Position numbers and translations under genes: made by a program
The notes under the pieces: model-generated
Database searches by the model: none
What the model was told of the DNA's origin: nothing
Seen by the model: the letters and a program-made list of their open reading frames with translations, nothing else
Shown: one piece after another, positions 1 through 63,471 of the stretch
How positions within the stretch are numbered: the first letter of the stretch is position 1
How the letters are laid out: each line of letters begins with the position of its first letter
DNA from: Escherichia phage vB_EcoM_11B_SA_NWU
DNA: 64,000 bases
Sequence record: OR062527
Direction: 5' to 3' (one strand)

Positions 1-1395
1 AAAATCTTCACGACCACGGGATTTAATTGTCTCATTAAATTCTTCATCTAATGTAAACACATAATCCGCTTCCATTATTTTAAGATAATGGTTAATCTGC
101 TTATTAAATAATGGAATGTACTTTTTAATAATAGCACCTTTAATACCAGAATCTTTGAGCATATCAGTCAAAATTCCTCGGTGGTATTTTTCCATTACTA
201 AATTAGTTTTTGTCTTAACAATTTTATCAAGTTCTTCTTGAAGCAGTGCTATTTCATCAGCATGGTCAATAAACTCAGAAGATGCTTTTTCTATAGCTGC
301 TTTAACTTTTTTAGCTTTATCTACTGTCGTGATTAGAGATTGCTTTTTATTGCGAATATCATTTGCCAACGACTGCTGGGTTTTAATATTATCTCGGTAT
401 TCATCAACAAGAACTTTTAAATTATCACGGTGTGTTGAAAGCTGTTCAAACGAATGCGTGCATTCAGAAACTTTATCTTTAATTTTAGAAACAACTTTAT
501 CACCGGAACTCAATTGTGACAAACAGGTTGGACATAATCCACCTTCGTGATACATATTAATGACTTTATTATACGAGTCAATTTTTGATTTAATTAAAAC
601 TGCTTCTTGACCGATTTTATTAAATGCATCAGTCGGGTCTTCGTCTAAAACAATATTAACTAATCTTTCATTAGCTTCTTCTATTTCCGATTTTAGCGTT
701 CTAGCTTCTTTTGCCAAATCATCATACATATTTTGCAGACGAGTAAGATTGTCACCCGTTAATTTTTTCTGGCGTTCAACGTTATCATTATATATTTTAA
801 TTTGTTGGATAATACTATCTTTTTTAACATCAAGCACTTGGTTTTGTGAATTTAATTCACGTATTAGTGCTTTATTAAGCTTATCCATTTCAGCTAATGT
901 TCCTACCTCAAGCAGGTCTTCCACAAGCTTTCTTCGCGCAGGGGTCGACAAACCCATGAAAGGGGTATACCCTGCTGTACCAAGGACAACAATCTGCTTG
1001 AAACTGGCATATGACATTCCGATAAGCTGTTCAAATTCTGCTTGGAAATCTTTACTGCTGGCAGATTCATTAAGACGTGTACCGTTAACGGTGATTTCGA
1101 AAACGTTTGGTTTTTGTCCTCTTTTGATATAGTACTTTTTCTCATCATATTCCATCCACAGTTCAACTAAAAGTTCTTTCTTATTTGTGCTGTTTATTAA
1201 TTGACCTTTCTTTACATCACGAAATGGCTTACCAAAAAGCCCAAATGTGATGGCTTCTAACATAGTAGACTTACCACCGCCATTTCGTCCAGTAATAAGA
1301 GTTTTTTGAACCTTATCTAATTGAATGTCAATAGGATTTCCACCTACTGACATTATATTTTGATACCTAACTCGGTTTAGTTTAAAATTTTTCAC
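1..1395 (-). CDS. 46: Recombination endonuclease subunit gp46 (Rad50/SbcC-like ATPase), N-terminal ~465 aa; C-terminus runs off window edge
   Basis: Minus-strand frame open to position 1; Walker A LITGRNGGGKST near N-terminus; probable GTG start at 1395 (VKNFKLNRV...MSVGGNPIDIQ); sits downstream of gp47 as in T4. Confidence 0.8.
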   Translation of the reverse strand, partial: MKNFKLNRVRYQNIMSVGGNPIDIQLDKVQKTLITGRNGGGKSTMLEAITFGLFGKPFRDVKKGQLINSTNKKELLVELWMEYDEKKYYIKRGQKPNVFEITVNGTRLNESASSKDFQAEFEQLIGMSYASFKQIVVLGTAGYTPFMGLSTPARRKLVEDLLEVGTLAEMDKLNKALIRELNSQNQVLDVKKDSIIQQIKIYNDNVERQKKLTGDNLTRLQNMYDDLAKEARTLKSEIEEANERLVNIVLDEDPTDAFNKIGQEAVLIKSKIDSYNKVINMYHEGGLCPTCLSQLSSGDKVVSKIKDKVSECTHSFEQLSTHRDNLKVLVDEYRDNIKTQQSLANDIRNKKQSLITTVDKAKKVKAAIEKASSEFIDHADEIALLQEELDKIVKTKTNLVMEKYHRGILTDMLKDSGIKGAIIKKYIPLFNKQINHYLKIMEADYVFTLDEEFNETIKSRGREDF

Positions 1396-28851: not shown

Positions 28852-29172
28852 TTATTCTTTAAATCTAATCAATTTATTCATAGACTTTGAAACTTCTGCA
28901 CGAACCTCATGTAAGTTTTTAAGCTGTTCAAGACGCTGCTCATAGTAAGCAATTTCGTCTTCTTCAAGACAGTCCTGCGAATCTTCTTTAAGATAACGTG
29001 CATAGTCCTGGAAAGCTTTACGGACTACTTCCTGGAAGTCATCAAGACTTTGAATTTTCTTAGGAGCGGCAGATACACGACGAGGTGCAGTATAATACTC
29101 ATAACCAAACCCTGCGCTTAATTGAGCCATTAGTATTTTTCCTCTGGTTGGAACACTGCACGACAAGCCCAC
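28852..29172 (-). CDS. hypothetical protein
   Basis: 106-aa ORF. Confidence 0.4.
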
Positions 29173-29411
29173 ATACTGGCTTCTTTGAGTTTCGTTTTAG
29201 CAATAGTTAACTGATCGAGGCTTTCAGCATAATTCTTCGCGAAATCACAGTCTTCGCAATTATCTAGTGCTTCCCAGAATTCATCGTATAAAGCGTCAAA
29301 GATAAGTCCTAAACGAACTTCAGCGTCTTTAATAGCATTCACTTTACCGATTTTCTCTTCAGTATGTGGTTTATAACCTTTAATATCTTCAATCATATTT
29401 GACTTCCTCAC
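29130..29411 (-). CDS. hypothetical protein
   Basis: 93-aa acidic ORF. Confidence 0.4.
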
Positions 29412-29610
29412 CAGTACCTAAATCATATTCAACTAAACGAATAGGTTCATGAATGCCATATTCTTGAACAGAAATTTCTGTCGTAGGATAAATTCCATCA
29501 ATATCCCCCATATTCCATGCTTCATTAAATTGTTGCTCACCTGAATTACTAAACCACTCAGTGAAAGCATTTAGTACATCTTCAGAACCTTCAATAATTA
29601 TCTTTGCCAT
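29389..29610 (-). CDS. hypothetical protein
   Basis: 73-aa acidic ORF. Confidence 0.4.
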   Translation of the reverse strand: MAKIIIEGSEDVLNAFTEWFSNSGEQQFNEAWNMGDIDGIYPTTEISVQEYGIHEPIRLVEYDLGTGEEVKYD

Positions 29611-29972
29611 TACAAACTCTCGGTAAAGGTACGAGCGATAACGTCGCGCTGCTGTTCCGGAGTCAGAGAGTTAAAGCGAACTGCATAACCGGATACACGG
29701 ATGGTCAGCTGCGGATATTTTTCCGGATGCTTAACTGCATCTTCCAGAGTTTCACGACGCAGAACGTTAACGTTCAGGTGTTGACCACCTTCAATTTTAA
29801 CTGTAGGCTGTGGCTCAATTTCAATTTCACGGGCATGCAAACCATAGAAAATTTCTGGGTCTACAAAAGAGTCCTCTTTAAAAGTTTTAGAAACGATAAT
29901 TCGTGCTTGAATACCATCTTCAAAATAAATAGTACCTTTGTGTGTGCCTTCAAGAATTTGATATGCTTTCAT
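29610..29972 (-). CDS. Autonomous glycyl-radical cofactor (GrcA/YfiD-like)
   Basis: 120 aa; C-terminal [27 protein letters not shown] matches the glycyl-radical loop of E. coli GrcA/PFL. Confidence 0.8.
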
Positions 29973-29978
29973 ATAACC

Positions 29979-30308
29979 TCAATTAGAAAATAAATTTATC
30001 CAAGATTGTTCTTTAATTAAAAACGGCTCAGAATCATATGCCATTAAACTTTGAGTAATTAATCCTTTAAATGGTCCATCAATAAATTCCATTGTAAAAT
30101 ATGGAATTTTATTCATTAACCGTGCATTAGGAGCAGTGCATAAAACTCTGCATCCTTTGAATACACCTTTTTGTAATTTGTATTGCTTGGGATAAAATTC
30201 ACTCAAAATATCACTGTTTGCCAAAATTTCAAAATGATTCACCAACTTATTTTTAATAGTTTTTGGCGAAAAATAAAGATATTCAAAAAGCTGCGCATCT
30301 GTCATCAT
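29979..30308 (-). CDS. hypothetical protein, translationally coupled partner of P-loop ATPase
   Basis: Start at MMTDAQLFEY, forming an ATGA overlap with the upstream stop; tracked ORF extends further but overlaps 55 nt. Confidence 0.45.
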   Translation of the reverse strand: MMTDAQLFEYLYFSPKTIKNKLVNHFEILANSDILSEFYPKQYKLQKGVFKGCRVLCTAPNARLMNKIPYFTMEFIDGPFKGLITQSLMAYDSEPFLIKEQSWINLFSN

Positions 30309-30892
30309 TGCATTCCGATTACGAAAAACTGTGGACGAGTAATACCACCAATGCAACATTTACTATTGCAGCAGTAGTGTACAGTGTCCATATGGGCGCT
30401 ATAAATCTTATCCATATCAGGAGATTTAACAGGCTCATCAATTATATACAAAATTCGCGAAAGCGATAAACCTATGAACTTGCTTCCTTTATTACCAATA
30501 AAACTGCGCACAGAATCAGTAAATAAACGAAAACGTATATCATCATTAGAATAACGCGAAAATTCCTTTTTAATGTTATCTGCAGAAATTTTAGCGTAAG
30601 CTGAAGTATTAGAAAGAACAATAACTGTTCCGCCATCATACAGCCAATTAGCAGCAAAGTTAGTCACAGCAACTGATTTTCCGGATTGGCGACCACCGTC
30701 AAGTCGAAGAGTGCAATACTGTTTGAGTAAGTCTTCAAATGGCGGGATATAATCGTTTTTACAAATTTCTTCTACTCTAGCATCAGAATGGTGTGTAAAA
30801 GCATTCATCAGGGATAGATAAGGACCAGTCAAAAATGTTCTCATTTTATTCTCTCTAGATTTGGGCCATTCCATGGCGCATGAATTGTCCAT
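30305..30892 (-). CDS. P-loop NTPase
   Basis: Walker A LDGGRQSGKS and Walker B ILYIIDEP; Cys-rich C-terminus; start Met uncertain (M1, M7 or M17). Confidence 0.5.
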   Translation of the reverse strand: MDNSCAMEWPKSRENKMRTFLTGPYLSLMNAFTHHSDARVEEICKNDYIPPFEDLLKQYCTLRLDGGRQSGKSVAVTNFAANWLYDGGTVIVLSNTSAYAKISADNIKKEFSRYSNDDIRFRLFTDSVRSFIGNKGSKFIGLSLSRILYIIDEPVKSPDMDKIYSAHMDTVHYCCNSKCCIGGITRPQFFVIGMQ

Positions 30893-30979
30893 TCCTGCAT
30901 TTACCCATTACCGCACTCAGGCTCGACCTTATCACAGGTTGGCGGGAATACCTCAAATGAGGCTCAGGTTGTTCCCATG

Positions 30980-31453
30980 TTATTTAAATGATTTGACGTA
31001 CTGAACAGAACCTTTACTATTCACAAAGGCAATTTTACCGTTTTTGTTATACATTGTGGCAGTACGTTGATAGCCATAAGTTTGTTTACCAGATTGATAA
31101 CCAACTAATGCAAAATTATCTTCACCCATTTTATTCTGTTTAGCGCGAATGCGTTCATGACCGTGAGCCATAAGAACCTTAGCATCACCAGTTGCAATGG
31201 ATCTACGAGTTTTTTCATCTTCAACTGTATTAACAAAGTCGTCAAATGAATCAAATTTAGCATGAGATTTATTATACAGTTTTCCATCTACTGCATAATT
31301 ATATCCCTGTACATCCATCTCAACTTCTGTACCATCATCCAATACAGCAGTGATTTTCTGTCCTTTTTTAAATTTCAAAAGATCAGTAAAAGATTCAGCA
31401 ATAATTTGAGAATTAATAGCTGCTTCAGTAATAAATTCTTGATATGTTTTCAT
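30980..31453 (-). CDS. Internal protein (capsid-targeted, ipIII-like position)
   Basis: N-terminal capsid-targeting sequence MKTYQEFITEA; next to e as for T4 internal proteins. Confidence 0.7.
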   Translation of the reverse strand: MKTYQEFITEAAINSQIIAESFTDLLKFKKGQKITAVLDDGTEVEMDVQGYNYAVDGKLYNKSHAKFDSFDDFVNTVEDEKTRRSIATGDAKVLMAHGHERIRAKQNKMGEDNFALVGYQSGKQTYGYQRTATMYNKNGKIAFVNSKGSVQYVKSFK

Positions 31454-31547
31454 GTGTATCCTTTAAATGTAAATATTTTAATTAATAATTTATCTCTTCA
31501 AATAACTGTGAATATACTATCACAATTCTAGGAGAAAGTAAATAACT

Positions 31548-32516
<969 letters not shown>

Positions 32517-36801: not shown

Positions 36802-36877
36802 TGGTCGAGGCAGTAGGGATCGAACCTACGACCCAGGACTTAGAAGGTCCTTGCTCTTCCTTCTGAGCTATGCCCCG
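36802..36877 (-). tRNA. tRNA-Arg (anticodon TCT)
   Basis: Hand-folded cloverleaf; anticodon loop CTTCTAA; T-loop GGTTCGATCC; CCA encoded. Confidence 0.8.
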
Positions 36878-36880
36878 TAA

Positions 36881-37531
36881 TTAAAATTTCATTTTTCGAC
36901 CTTTAAACCATCCTTCTGGAATTGGGTCAGTTTTCTTAATACGTTTAGAAACTTTTTCATCTAATGAATGAATCCACATGGTTCCAAACTGAGAATTGTA
37001 TTTTCCAGAAGAATTAATCTTGGCTGAATCAGATATTTTCTTTTTCGTTTCTTTGTTATGTAGTTTACCTAAAAATCCAAAAGTTGGTTTTCTTATTCCA
37101 TTTTCCCATTGAATTTTCATAGATTCAGAAACTTTTTGCGATACCTTCGAATAGTCTCTTCTTAAGTTAGATTCTCTTACTCCAGATGAACAAATTGATG
37201 CAAAATTTGGACTATTACAAATATGATCCCAACCGCCTTCGCCACCAATCTTAAGATTATAAACGTTGCCTTTTAAAAATTCTTCTGTTACAATTTCAAG
37301 CTCTTTTGCGTACATTTCTTTAGCAGAAGAAAATTCATACAAAATTTCTTTTGTGAAATTATTTATTCCATACTTAGCAATTGCTCTTTTTATTCTTTTA
37401 CCAGAACCCATATAACCATCATTTATATTAGATGTTTTATGAGCTCCAACATAAACAGTTCCATTGATTAAATTAGTTATTTTATAAATCAGATAATGCA
37501 TATCTCCTCCATAGTTGAGATTATTATACAT
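36881..37531 (-). CDS. segB: GIY-YIG homing endonuclease (SegB-like)
   Basis: 216 aa; N-terminal YLIYKITNLINGTVYVGAHKT; located inside the tRNA cluster. Confidence 0.75.
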   Translation of the reverse strand: MYNNLNYGGDMHYLIYKITNLINGTVYVGAHKTSNINDGYMGSGKRIKRAIAKYGINNFTKEILYEFSSAKEMYAKELEIVTEEFLKGNVYNLKIGGEGGWDHICNSPNFASICSSGVRESNLRRDYSKVSQKVSESMKIQWENGIRKPTFGFLGKLHNKETKKKISDSAKINSSGKYNSQFGTMWIHSLDEKVSKRIKKTDPIPEGWFKGRKMKF

Positions 37532-37558
37532 TATTCCATTCCAATTGTAAACAAAAAA

Positions 37559-37631
37559 GGTGACCGATGGGAGTTGAACCCATGACTACGAGAATCACAA
37601 TCTCGAGTTCTACCAACTGAACTACGGCCAC
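37559..37631 (-). tRNA. tRNA-His (anticodon GTG)
   Basis: Hand-folded; anticodon loop TTGTGAT; acceptor resembles E. coli tRNA-His but no encoded G-1 or CCA. Confidence 0.6.
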
Positions 37632-37745
37632 ATTAATACCTACTCCAACAATCAAGATGTCTTCACACGAAATTAAGAGAAGAGTGATCAGTTCAACCCC
37701 TATAATCGCGTCAAGTAGATATTAATGTGACAGTTGTCACAAATT

Positions 37746-37820
37746 TGGCGGACGTGATAGGATTCGAACCTATAACCAATCGCTTAACAGGCGATCGCTC
37801 TGCCATTGAGCTACACATCC
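37746..37820 (-). tRNA. tRNA-Asn (anticodon GTT)
   Basis: Hand-folded; anticodon loop CTGTTAA; CCA encoded. Confidence 0.7.
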
Positions 37821-37824
37821 AAAT

Positions 37825-37911
37825 TGGTGGGGAGTGATGGAGTCGAACCACCCGAGTCGTAATGACAATGAATTTACAGTCCACACCGCTACCTCTACGG
37901 GATAACTCCCC
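37825..37911 (-). tRNA. tRNA-Tyr (anticodon GTA), long variable arm
   Basis: Hand-folded; anticodon loop CTGTAAA; 15-nt variable arm; CCA encoded. Confidence 0.65.
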
Positions 37912-37920
37912 AAATTAATT

Positions 37921-37995
37921 TGGTGGCCCTGGGTGGAATTGAACCACCATCTGGCGATTATGAGTCGCTTGCTTGAACCTTCCAGCTACAGGGCC
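37921..37995 (-). tRNA. tRNA with CAT anticodon (Met or lysidine-modified Ile)
   Basis: Hand-folded; anticodon loop CTCATAA; CCA encoded. Confidence 0.65.
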
Positions 37996-37996
37996 T

Positions 37997-38072
37997 TGGT
38001 GCTGATTGACGGAATCGAACCGCCGACATCCTCATTACAAGTGAGGTGCTCTACCTACTGAGCTAAATCAGC
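37997..38072 (-). tRNA. tRNA-Thr (anticodon TGT)
   Basis: Hand-folded; anticodon loop CTTGTAA; CCA encoded. Confidence 0.75.
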
Positions 38073-38077
38073 AAAAC

Positions 38078-38167
38078 TGGCGGAGGCGATAGGATTCGAA
38101 CCTATGAGTCGCCGGAGCGACTGCCGGTTTTCAAGACCGGTGCATTCAACCACTCTGCCACGCCTCC
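38078..38167 (-). tRNA. tRNA-Ser (anticodon TGA), long variable arm
   Basis: Hand-folded; anticodon loop CTTGAAA; CCA encoded. Confidence 0.75.
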
Positions 38168-38169
38168 AG

Positions 38170-38243
38170 TCTCCATACAAGGATTTGAACCTTGGACCTC
38201 CTGATCCCAAATCAGGCGCTCTACCAAACTGAGCTACACGGAG
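38170..38243 (-). tRNA. tRNA-Pro (anticodon TGG)
   Basis: Hand-folded; anticodon loop TTTGGGA; CCA not encoded. Confidence 0.7.
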
Positions 38244-38253
38244 TAAATTAAAT

Positions 38254-38327
<74 letters not shown>

Positions 38328-38332
38328 AAATT

Positions 38333-38419
38333 TGGTGCGAGAAGTGGGACTCGAACCCACAAGGAAATCATTCCGCAGCATTTTAAGTGCTGTGCCTTTA
38401 CCAATTTGACCATTCTCGC
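38333..38419 (-). tRNA. tRNA-Leu (anticodon TAA), long variable arm
   Basis: Hand-folded; anticodon loop CTTAAAA; CCA encoded. Confidence 0.75.
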
Positions 38420-38420
38420 G

Positions 38421-38493
38421 CTGGGAATAAAGGATTCGAACCTTTGCATCCTGGAATCAAAATCCAGTGCCTTACCAACTTGGCTAATTCCCA
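38421..38493 (-). tRNA. tRNA-Gln (anticodon TTG)
   Basis: Hand-folded; anticodon loop TTTTGAT; U1-A72 acceptor pair. Confidence 0.7.

Positions 38494-60330: not shown

Positions 60331-63471
<3,141 letters not shown>

Follow-up and report, generated by a model that had tools for sequence, protein, structure and literature searches.

What are the two overlapping open reading frames (ORFs) that lie between the GrcA-like gene and the internal-protein (IP) gene of Escherichia phage vB_EcoM_11B_SA_NWU, and what is the GC-rich stretch in front of them? We addressed this question in a 64,000-nucleotide (nt) stretch of the phage (sequence record OR062527), which we refer to as the window. The initial annotation had taken the ORFs to be a horizontally acquired P-loop NTPase module which occupies the slot where T4 carries denV and ipII. 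We found that the two ORFs are, with a probability of about 0.85 as judged from sequence comparison, the orthologues of the T4 genes vs.8 and vs.7; this figure refers to their identity and anatomy and not to their biological role.

Identity and position of the gene pair

30305..30844, minus strand: vs.8, predicted stand-alone P-loop ATPase of 179 amino acids (aa) with a RecA-like, terminase-ATPase-like fold
29979..30308, minus strand: vs.7, partner protein of 109 aa with two N-terminal helices and a small SH3-like beta-barrel

Both minus-strand ORFs, including the 109-aa partner, were confirmed at the place where they had first been described. The vs.8 protein matched phrog_1488 over its full length (E 4.2e-77, residues 3-179 against profile positions 2-177 of 177), as vs.7 did phrog_2049 (E 3.6e-54, residues 1-109 against profile positions 1-105 of 105), and identity to the T4 orthologues was 93-96% for the vs.8 protein and 96% for vs.7. 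T4 vs.8, a hypothetical protein of phrog_1488 encoded in the denV-regB interval, shares with its counterpart in the window the neighbours vs.7 and vs.6, the upstream element and the motifs described below; its upstream neighbour is denV in T4 and Ip4 here, and nothing essential differs. For T4 vs.7 (phrog_2049), which has the same ATGA coupling to vs.8, we found no difference. Using tblastn, matches to vs.8 were found in 1009 phage records and to vs.7 in 922, and the hosts of the phages which carry them belong to Escherichia, Shigella, Klebsiella, Enterobacter, Yersinia, Salmonella, Citrobacter, Serratia and Erwinia. The pair is already known: it is the conserved T-even gene pair vs.8/vs.7, which has been catalogued for decades.

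The genes surrounding the pair in the window are the following:

31548..32042, minus strand: ORF for e, lysozyme
30980..31453, minus strand: gene for the internal virion protein Ip4 (Pfam DUF7412, E 1e-95; phrog_3155; RB14 annotation)
29610..29972, minus strand: vs.6, GrcA-like glycyl-radical cofactor gene (Pfam Gly_radical, E 2.8e-18; RB14 and T4 annotations)
28852..29411, minus strand: orthologues of vs.3 and vs.4, downstream neighbours of the pair

A megablast search with 29600..31500 returned 809 phage records, the top matches being RB14-like Tequatroviruses at 95-96% identity, and RB14 is annotated with the identical gene order e, Ip4, vs.8, vs.7, vs.6, vs.5, vs.4, vs.3, regB. The order in T4 is e, ipIII, ipII, denV, vs.8, vs.7, vs.6, and the ipIII-ipII-denV segment of T4 corresponds to the single Ip4 gene here, as it does in RB14, RB32 and T2. 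The absence of an endonuclease V-like ORF, which had been remarked upon at the outset, was borne out, as tblastn (E ≤ 10) gave no denV match across the 64 kb. However, vs.8 and vs.7 do not fill a denV/ipII slot, because T4 has both genes at this same position, directly downstream of denV, beside denV and ipII. The location of vs.8 between the IP/denV cluster and vs.7-vs.6 was seen in RB14, T4, HX01, C6, Mineola, CIP9 and dhabil. We conclude that the pair is inherited vertically at a fixed site, between the variable IP/denV cluster and vs.6, in Tequatrovirus and related Tevenvirinae genera.

It is very improbable that a two-gene ATPase module of a toxin/antitoxin or exclusion type was acquired horizontally and replaced denV and ipII. 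Such an exchange would agree with the missing denV, with the GC-rich junction and with the adjoining IP genes, which are truly hypervariable, but the pair occupies the same position in around 1000 T4-like phage records and T4 has it in addition to denV and ipII. The GC content of both genes is ordinary (36.9% for vs.8 and 28.5% for vs.7, with 35% for the window), and the GC-rich junction is kept across genera and also in T4, where it is ~95% identical and comes right after denV. A PADLOC search of both proteins found no meaningful match: vs.8 matched HerA alone, at E 0.03, and vs.7 matched no model. NCBIfam gave nothing meaningful for either. It should also be noted that a T4 vs.8-vs.3 fragment and each of its genes singly have been cloned in E. 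coli (PMC13243611), and that toxicity was not reported. The lack of a meaningful PADLOC match and the published cloning and toxicity data therefore disfavour a toxin-antitoxin module. The part of the initial annotation which describes a P-loop ATPase with a coupled partner stands.

Start codon, motifs and predicted fold of vs.8

The longest ORF in the vs.8 frame reaches 30892 and comprises 195 codons, and the open frame in T4 comprises 216. We place the true start of vs.8 at the ATG at 30844, because of the lengths and starts of its homologues and because of a frame-breaking indel. In a search of 5.8 billion proteins and an exhaustive profile search, the homologues were 173-181 aa long and began M-[KR]-T-F-L-T, with M1, L5, Y9 and L10 invariant. 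Upstream of the ATG a 1-nt indel causes the extension to read MRDSRQPV... in T4 and MDNSCAMEW... here, in DNA which is ~95% identical. We rejected the 195-aa ORF as an over-call, the homologues beginning at the methionine of MRTF/MKTF. On this basis the T4 reference annotation (216-219 aa) begins vs.8 approximately 37 codons too early, and over-extended versions were found in T4 MT984581.1 (L002 3408..3518), in L006 (1821..1859) and in several database proteins, including P0042; one database protein with a long N-terminal extension is a mere translation of the upstream DNA.

A coding role for the GC-rich stretch, as the N-terminal extension of vs.8 implied by the T4 annotations, is thus highly unlikely. 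Although a frame is open in both phages, if shorter here than in T4, and old T4 records (X04567.1) list alternative starts, the 1-nt indel shifts the frame between T4 and the window despite their similarity in DNA, and more 1-nt indels are present in other genera. Substitutions in the stretch are without third-codon-position bias, most homologues begin MRTF or MKTF, and in rV5-like phages the same core, described below, adjoins unrelated genes.

The nucleotide-binding motifs of vs.8 are located as follows:

30674..30697, minus strand: Walker A, G50-G-R-Q-S-G-K-S57 (D49-K56 invariant in 17 homologues)
30434..30451, minus strand: Walker B, L132-Y-I-I-D-E137, with E137 as presumed catalytic glutamate (I134, I135, E137 and P138 invariant)

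The identification of a P-loop NTPase from these two motifs (GGRQSGKS and LYIIDE) was upheld, as they are invariant or nearly so in the 17 homologues, with D136 of Walker B present in at least 90% of these. R113 and R124-G125 are likewise invariant or nearly so, and the C-terminus, ...FFVIGMQ, is conserved. The AlphaFold2 model consists of a single alpha/beta domain (predicted local distance difference test, pLDDT, 81.8; predicted template modelling score, pTM, 0.83). vs.8 has the features expected of P-loop NTPases of the ASCE / RecA-like type, namely a Walker A of the form GxxxxGK[ST], a Walker B with a glutamate and a parallel-sheet alpha/beta fold; the two tandem RecA-like domains of superfamily 2 (SF2) / DEAD-box helicases were not found in it. 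It is predicted to be a single-domain P-loop ATPase with a RecA-like fold, which would bind and hydrolyse nucleotides. Foldseek found similar small uncharacterised ATPases in other large myoviruses. The C-terminus had also been described as Cys-rich, and a CCxxxCC cluster is indeed present, but it is unconserved beyond the closest relatives and falls in the only low-confidence loop of the model; we rejected it as a zinc site.

Coupling of vs.8 and vs.7

30305..30308, minus strand: ATGA, in which the stop of vs.8 and the start of vs.7 overlap (read directly)

This overlap had been noted from the start, and it is widely retained. We drew 33 vs.8 loci from annotated phages and IMG/VR, and a stop/start overlap was present in 29 of them (4 nt in 24, 1 nt in 5). 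Those of known taxonomy represent six genera (Tequatrovirus, Mosigvirus, Dhakavirus, Jiaodavirus, Kanagawavirus and Roskildevirus), across which protein identity is 39-47%. The conserved overlap supports translational coupling, by which the two proteins would be co-translated in a fixed proportion.

The initial annotation had also considered that the ORFs might be a pseudogene, one known gene split by a frameshift, and a 4-nt overlap between different frames could be read in that way. This can for all practical purposes be excluded because 29 of the 33 loci keep the same two-ORF overlap, with protein identity down at 35-45%. Furthermore, each ORF has a separate PHROG family and is modelled as a confident independent domain, vs.8 homologues terminate at ...FFVIGMQ, and no fused homologue was seen in the homologue searches.

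A 2-nt deletion near codon 32 shifts the vs.8 frame in T2 (PV648363.1, L007 about 2640), whose record shows three small ORFs in place of the gene; T2, at least, can therefore do without vs.8.

Some genera have a shorter form of vs.7 (78-89 aa) which consists of the barrel only, without the N-terminal helices. The Pfam family PF26834 is found only as a precomputed annotation on vs.7 homologues, and a literature search on vs.7 found no paper. Enterobacter phage CIP9 (NC_048849.1) contains an unannotated vs.7 homologue of 116 aa (L006 2372..2722) with a 4-nt overlap with the vs.8 stop, in a stretch which the record leaves empty. Several GenBank records, e.g. MK962755.1, OQ446694.1 and MH051915.1, carry the labels "endoribonuclease" or "RegB domain-containing" on vs.7 and vs.8. 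We rejected vs.7 as a RegB-type endoribonuclease: BLASTP against the RegB of the same phage gave a 9-residue match (E 0.047), and there was no match to Pfam REGB_T4.

Relationship of vs.8 to the terminase

61636..63465: gp17, the true large terminase of this phage, 610 aa

Within the vs.8 family, 15 of 17 members matched phrog_2 (terminase large subunit, best E 1e-6) and 9 of 17 matched Pfam Terminase_6N (E ≤ 0.1, best 6.8e-5), all of the latter under the gathering score; vs.8 itself reached 12.2 bits against a Terminase_6N cut-off of 22. An hhalign comparison with gp17 of the same phage (E 0.0026) was colinear, with GRQSGKS aligned to SRQLGKT, RG to RG and IIDEP to YIDEC; in gp17 the counterpart of the vs.8 Walker B reads IYIDE. 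A profile search of PDB sequences with vs.8 produced chance-level matches only and did not find gp17. vs.8 thus appears to be remotely related to the N-terminal ATPase domain of T4-type gp17, with a similarity which is reproducible but weak and sub-threshold. In comparison to that domain (Terminase_6N; PDB 2o0h) and its protein, vs.8 has no N-terminal subdomain and no C-terminal RNase H-like nuclease domain, stopping after the ATPase core at residue 179 of 179 rather than extending to 610 aa, and its gene belongs to an early cluster rather than to the packaging module. One GenBank record labels vs.8 "large terminase subunit".

vs.8/vs.7 could also be pictured as a small nucleic-acid-dependent motor or remodeller, for instance an auxiliary in DNA packaging, recombination or RNA metabolism. 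We consider this unlikely. vs.8 has one RecA-like domain, without a second lobe and without a nuclease domain, and it is frameshifted in T2; its family is narrow, a search of 1.84 billion proteins having yielded only 51 clusters (50% identity) at E ≤ 1e-3, and the matches of vs.7 are too weak to support homology.

A conserved structured element upstream of vs.8

The unusual composition of the junction was confirmed: 30893..30979 has 51.7% GC against a window mean of 35%, which places it at the 99.4th percentile of equal-length windows. The interpretation of this stretch as a scar of acquisition did not hold, as most of it is a conserved non-coding element with the following parts:

30901..30976, minus strand: element core (single covariance-model match in the window, 91.6 bits)
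30944..30976, minus strand: P1, bulged hairpin, followed by the linker GCCA
30926..30939, minus strand: P2, ACCU-GUGAUA-AGGU
30912..30925, minus strand: P3, (C)GAGC-CUGA-GUGC(G), followed by GUAAUGGG
30845..30900, minus strand: 3' part of the element and vs.8 leader, with a variable spacer, a conserved block and, ahead of the ATG at 30844, a GAGAGA that resembles a Shine-Dalgarno sequence (MAFFT and two other alignments)
30863..30881, minus strand: the conserved block, AUGCGCCAUGGAAUGGCCC, single copy

The ~130 nt from the upstream stop codon to the vs.8 ATG are ~95% identical in T4 (after denV) and RB14, and the element is recognisable in the other T4-like genera examined. Across these genera, identity to the window is 75-91% in a 35-nt core and 84-95% in the 19-nt conserved block downstream of it; the vs.8 DNA of the same genera has 49-57% identity, and its third codon positions 37-46%. 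The junction is non-coding because 1-nt indels separate T4, the window and other genera, and a small ORF or an N-terminal extension was rejected on account of these frame-breaking indels. At the level of sequence, the GC-rich stretch is neither coding nor an insertion scar, but a conserved structured non-coding element.

In T4-like phages P1 begins 0-3 nt past the upstream stop codon and the linker has 4-5 nt. The general order after the linker is ACCU-GUAAUA-AGGU (P2), (C)GAGC-NNNN-GYGC(G) (P3, in which the four variable bases are tetraloop-like) and then GGUAAUGGG, and the near-invariant core can be written ACCUGUAAUAAGGUCGAGC-NNNN-GYGCGGUAAUGGG. P1 varies in sequence while its arms remain complementary. 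The pairings found in its outer stem were GGGAA/UUCCC, GGGAG/CUCCC, AAAGGC/GCCUUU, AAAGGU/ACCUUU, AAAGCUA/UAGCUUU, AAAGA/UCUUU, GGGG/CCCC, GGAAC/GUUCC, UGAGG/CCUCA, GAAUGU/ACAUUC and GUGUAU/AUACAC, and those in its inner stem were CCUCAUG/UAUGAGG, CCUCACA/UGUGAGG, CCUUAUG/UAUAAGG, CACAU/AUGUG, CUACG/CGUAG and CACC/GGUG. In the T2 copy of the element (L007 2411..2492) the 3' arm of P2 reads AAUG in place of AAGG, a G-to-U change.

We built a covariance model from seven T4-type sequences and searched it in 39 sources, in each of which it had exactly one match. In the resulting alignment 94.9% of cells pair, compared to 83.4% after shuffling and 25-45% with the partners slid, and ten pairs changed on both sides (5 of 5 in the outer P1 stem and 5 of 7 in the inner P1 stem); these counts are biased in favour of the structure, to which the alignment was fitted. 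For P2 and P3, in which no pair varied on both sides, covariation neither supports nor contradicts the pairing. RNAalifold gave no convincing global fold on plain MAFFT alignments because MAFFT misaligns the hairpins, and the covariance-model alignment was used instead.

Distribution of the element

Homology between T4 and the window resumes exactly at the first base of P1, and the element therefore appears as the constant right-hand border of the variable IP/denV cassette. Each Tevenvirinae sequence searched contained one copy, always at this border and in most cases immediately 5' of vs.8. Three Jiaodavirus-like contigs have an internal-protein gene (MKTYKEFITEA...) between the element and vs.8 (L015 about 321..620, L017 3071..3385 and L022 1739..2041, oriented to the element strand), and the element is therefore not strictly a vs.8 leader.

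The core was also found outside the T4-like phages, with 93-97% identity over ~40 nt. In Vequintavirinae (rV5, EmilHeitz and others) it lies between genes, in a gap of 250 nt which precedes an unrelated basic protein of 112 aa, and ~0.5 kb from a tRNA cluster, and it is also present in a second Vequintavirus-like type, in viral contigs of 75-97 kb, where it adjoins a 629-aa protein or an HNH-type gene, and in further metagenome contigs. The non-T4 copies always have a P1 hairpin of their own and are co-oriented with the flanking genes, and L039, L045 and L061 each have a terminator-like hairpin with a U-tract 40-125 nt beyond the element. Copies of the element, that of T4 among them, include:

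L002 3382..3521: element copy of T4 (MT984581.1)
L035 1469..1543: element copy
L039 7906..7978: element copy
L041 97..171: element copy
L045 1921..1992: element copy
L053 and L068: further element copies

In Vequintavirus-like contigs the motif CCC(Y)TAGAGGGCTTGA(W)AGTGC precedes the element (L035 1425..1460; L041 about 63..95), and the L041 type has a second copy of it right behind the core (about 185..215). The motif might serve as a promoter specific to the phage or as a binding site for a protein. Two non-T4 contigs which bear the element also contain group I introns above the Rfam gathering threshold (L041 3115..3418; L039 12784..13079), several kb from it.

Comparison of the element to known RNAs and signals

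Rfam 15 contained nothing near significance for either the T4-like or the rV5-like version of the element, and a literature search for the core sequence found nothing. The core 19-mer was absent from 185,579 bacterial and archaeal species genomes, blastn found no match to the element in E. coli genomes, and the complementarity of the core to E. coli 16S, 23S and 5S rRNA and three tRNAs was at chance level; a host origin of the core, or its pairing with host RNA, is unsupported by these results. ARAGORN predicted no tRNA or tmRNA at the element. On the minus strand of the junction we found no sigma-70 promoter and no intrinsic terminator, and no MotA box or late-promoter consensus was seen by eye.

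The closest comparison is with the promoter-early stem-loop (PeSL) cassettes of T4-type phages (PMC2839356, PMC4122927), in which, as here, a stem-loop borders a variable gene cassette. In some genera only, the variable spacer of the element also contains an early promoter motif like TTTACA-N16/17-TAYWAT. However, PeSLs are multi-copy, with an early promoter beside each stem-loop, and the element is single-copy by both pattern and covariance-model searches of the 64 kb; it has a nearly invariant core of ~35 nt, which PeSLs do not have, it is shared with Vequintavirinae, and it is without promoter-like hexamers in T4 or the window. We rejected it as a PeSL because of its single copy and the absence of these hexamers, as well as for its invariant core.

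We think it somewhat more probable than the opposite that the element (30845..30976, minus strand) represents an undescribed family of structured phage RNAs or of cis elements which act at the RNA level. Possible functions are those of a small RNA, of a signal for processing or stability, or of one for antitermination, and the terminator-like hairpin downstream of some copies would fit a discrete small RNA.

Possible role of vs.8 and vs.7

The two proteins would be produced at a constant ratio and would work jointly: vs.8 would bind and hydrolyse ATP, and vs.7 would serve as its adaptor or regulatory subunit; we infer that they interact physically. Within the pre-replicative vs gene cluster, the module may be an accessory which the phage can dispense with. 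We tentatively favour host takeover or counter-defence as its most likely role, and the anti-defence function which had been suggested for the pair is possible. The pair sits in an early gene cluster which is rich in counter-defence genes, with vs.3 and also vs.4, which we take to be Acb2. The product of vs.3 is TadIV-1, an inhibitor or sponge of type IV Thoeris (PMC13243611, 2026).

According to a preprint of May 2026 (bioRxiv 10.64898/2026.04.30.721860), vs.8 emerged when T4 proteins were screened against EcAvs2 with AlphaFold 3, with an interface predicted template modelling score (ipTM) of 0.84 for the model; the authors call it ATPase-like, uncharacterised and homologous to the ATPase of the terminase. 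Toxicity of vs.8 was reported only on co-expression with EcAvs2, and the authors mention a possible anti-defence function. The host receptor Avs2 would, by this report, sense vs.8 through a terminase-ATPase-like surface, vs.8 being open to such sensing because its surface resembles that of the terminase ATPase. The same preprint describes the non-terminase Avs2 activators Ksap1 and Ksap2, which by their description are like vs.8: small, lineage-restricted, with a terminase-ATPase-like fold, and triggering Avs2 on co-expression. They belong to phage lineages which differ from that of vs.8, and the effect of vs.8 is known from co-expression.

A related but more doubtful proposal is that vs.8, with vs.7, is a mimic of the terminase ATPase which interferes with the Avs-type or Upx-type sensors by which the host detects the terminase, or with some other defence, so that recognition by Avs2 would be either its target or a counter-adaptation of the host. 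The terminase-like fold, the Walker A signature RQxGK[ST], the proven anti-defence genes in the cluster, the functional interaction of vs.8 with EcAvs2 and the anti-defence idea raised by the authors of the preprint are consistent with such a mimic; yet the sole reported effect is activation of EcAvs2 and not its inhibition, and strictly conserved catalytic motifs would not be needed in a passive decoy.

Some observations also count against the favoured reading of the pair. In the published screen of the T4 fragment and its single genes, Thoeris was inhibited by vs.3 only, and neither vs.8 nor vs.7 inhibited type IV Thoeris (PMC13243611). Activation of Avs2 harms the phage, and sensing by Avs2 says nothing of the function of vs.8 itself. 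In addition, vs.7 is intact in T2, where vs.8 is frameshifted, and may therefore have a function of its own.

Other features of the window

The window contains 11 tRNA genes at 36802..38493 on the minus strand (Arg, His, Asn, Tyr, Met, Thr, Ser, Pro, Gly, Leu and Gln); T4 has 8, fewer than found here.

Significance

The gene pair which was originally flagged is ordinary, and it is the upstream element that deserves follow-up. For the pair, the present analysis adds a corrected start of vs.8, evidence for coupling across genera and a natural frameshift of vs.8 in T2; in view of the cross-genus coupling, vs.7 is worth testing together with vs.8 in work on Avs2 and counter-defence. The element is conserved far above the neighbouring genes, shows compensatory base-pair changes, is common to unrelated phage groups and has no Rfam match. 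If it is indeed a functional RNA, this would explain the over-extended reference annotations of vs.8, and it would offer a new point of entry to the regulation of genes or the interaction with the host in the phage family that has been studied best.

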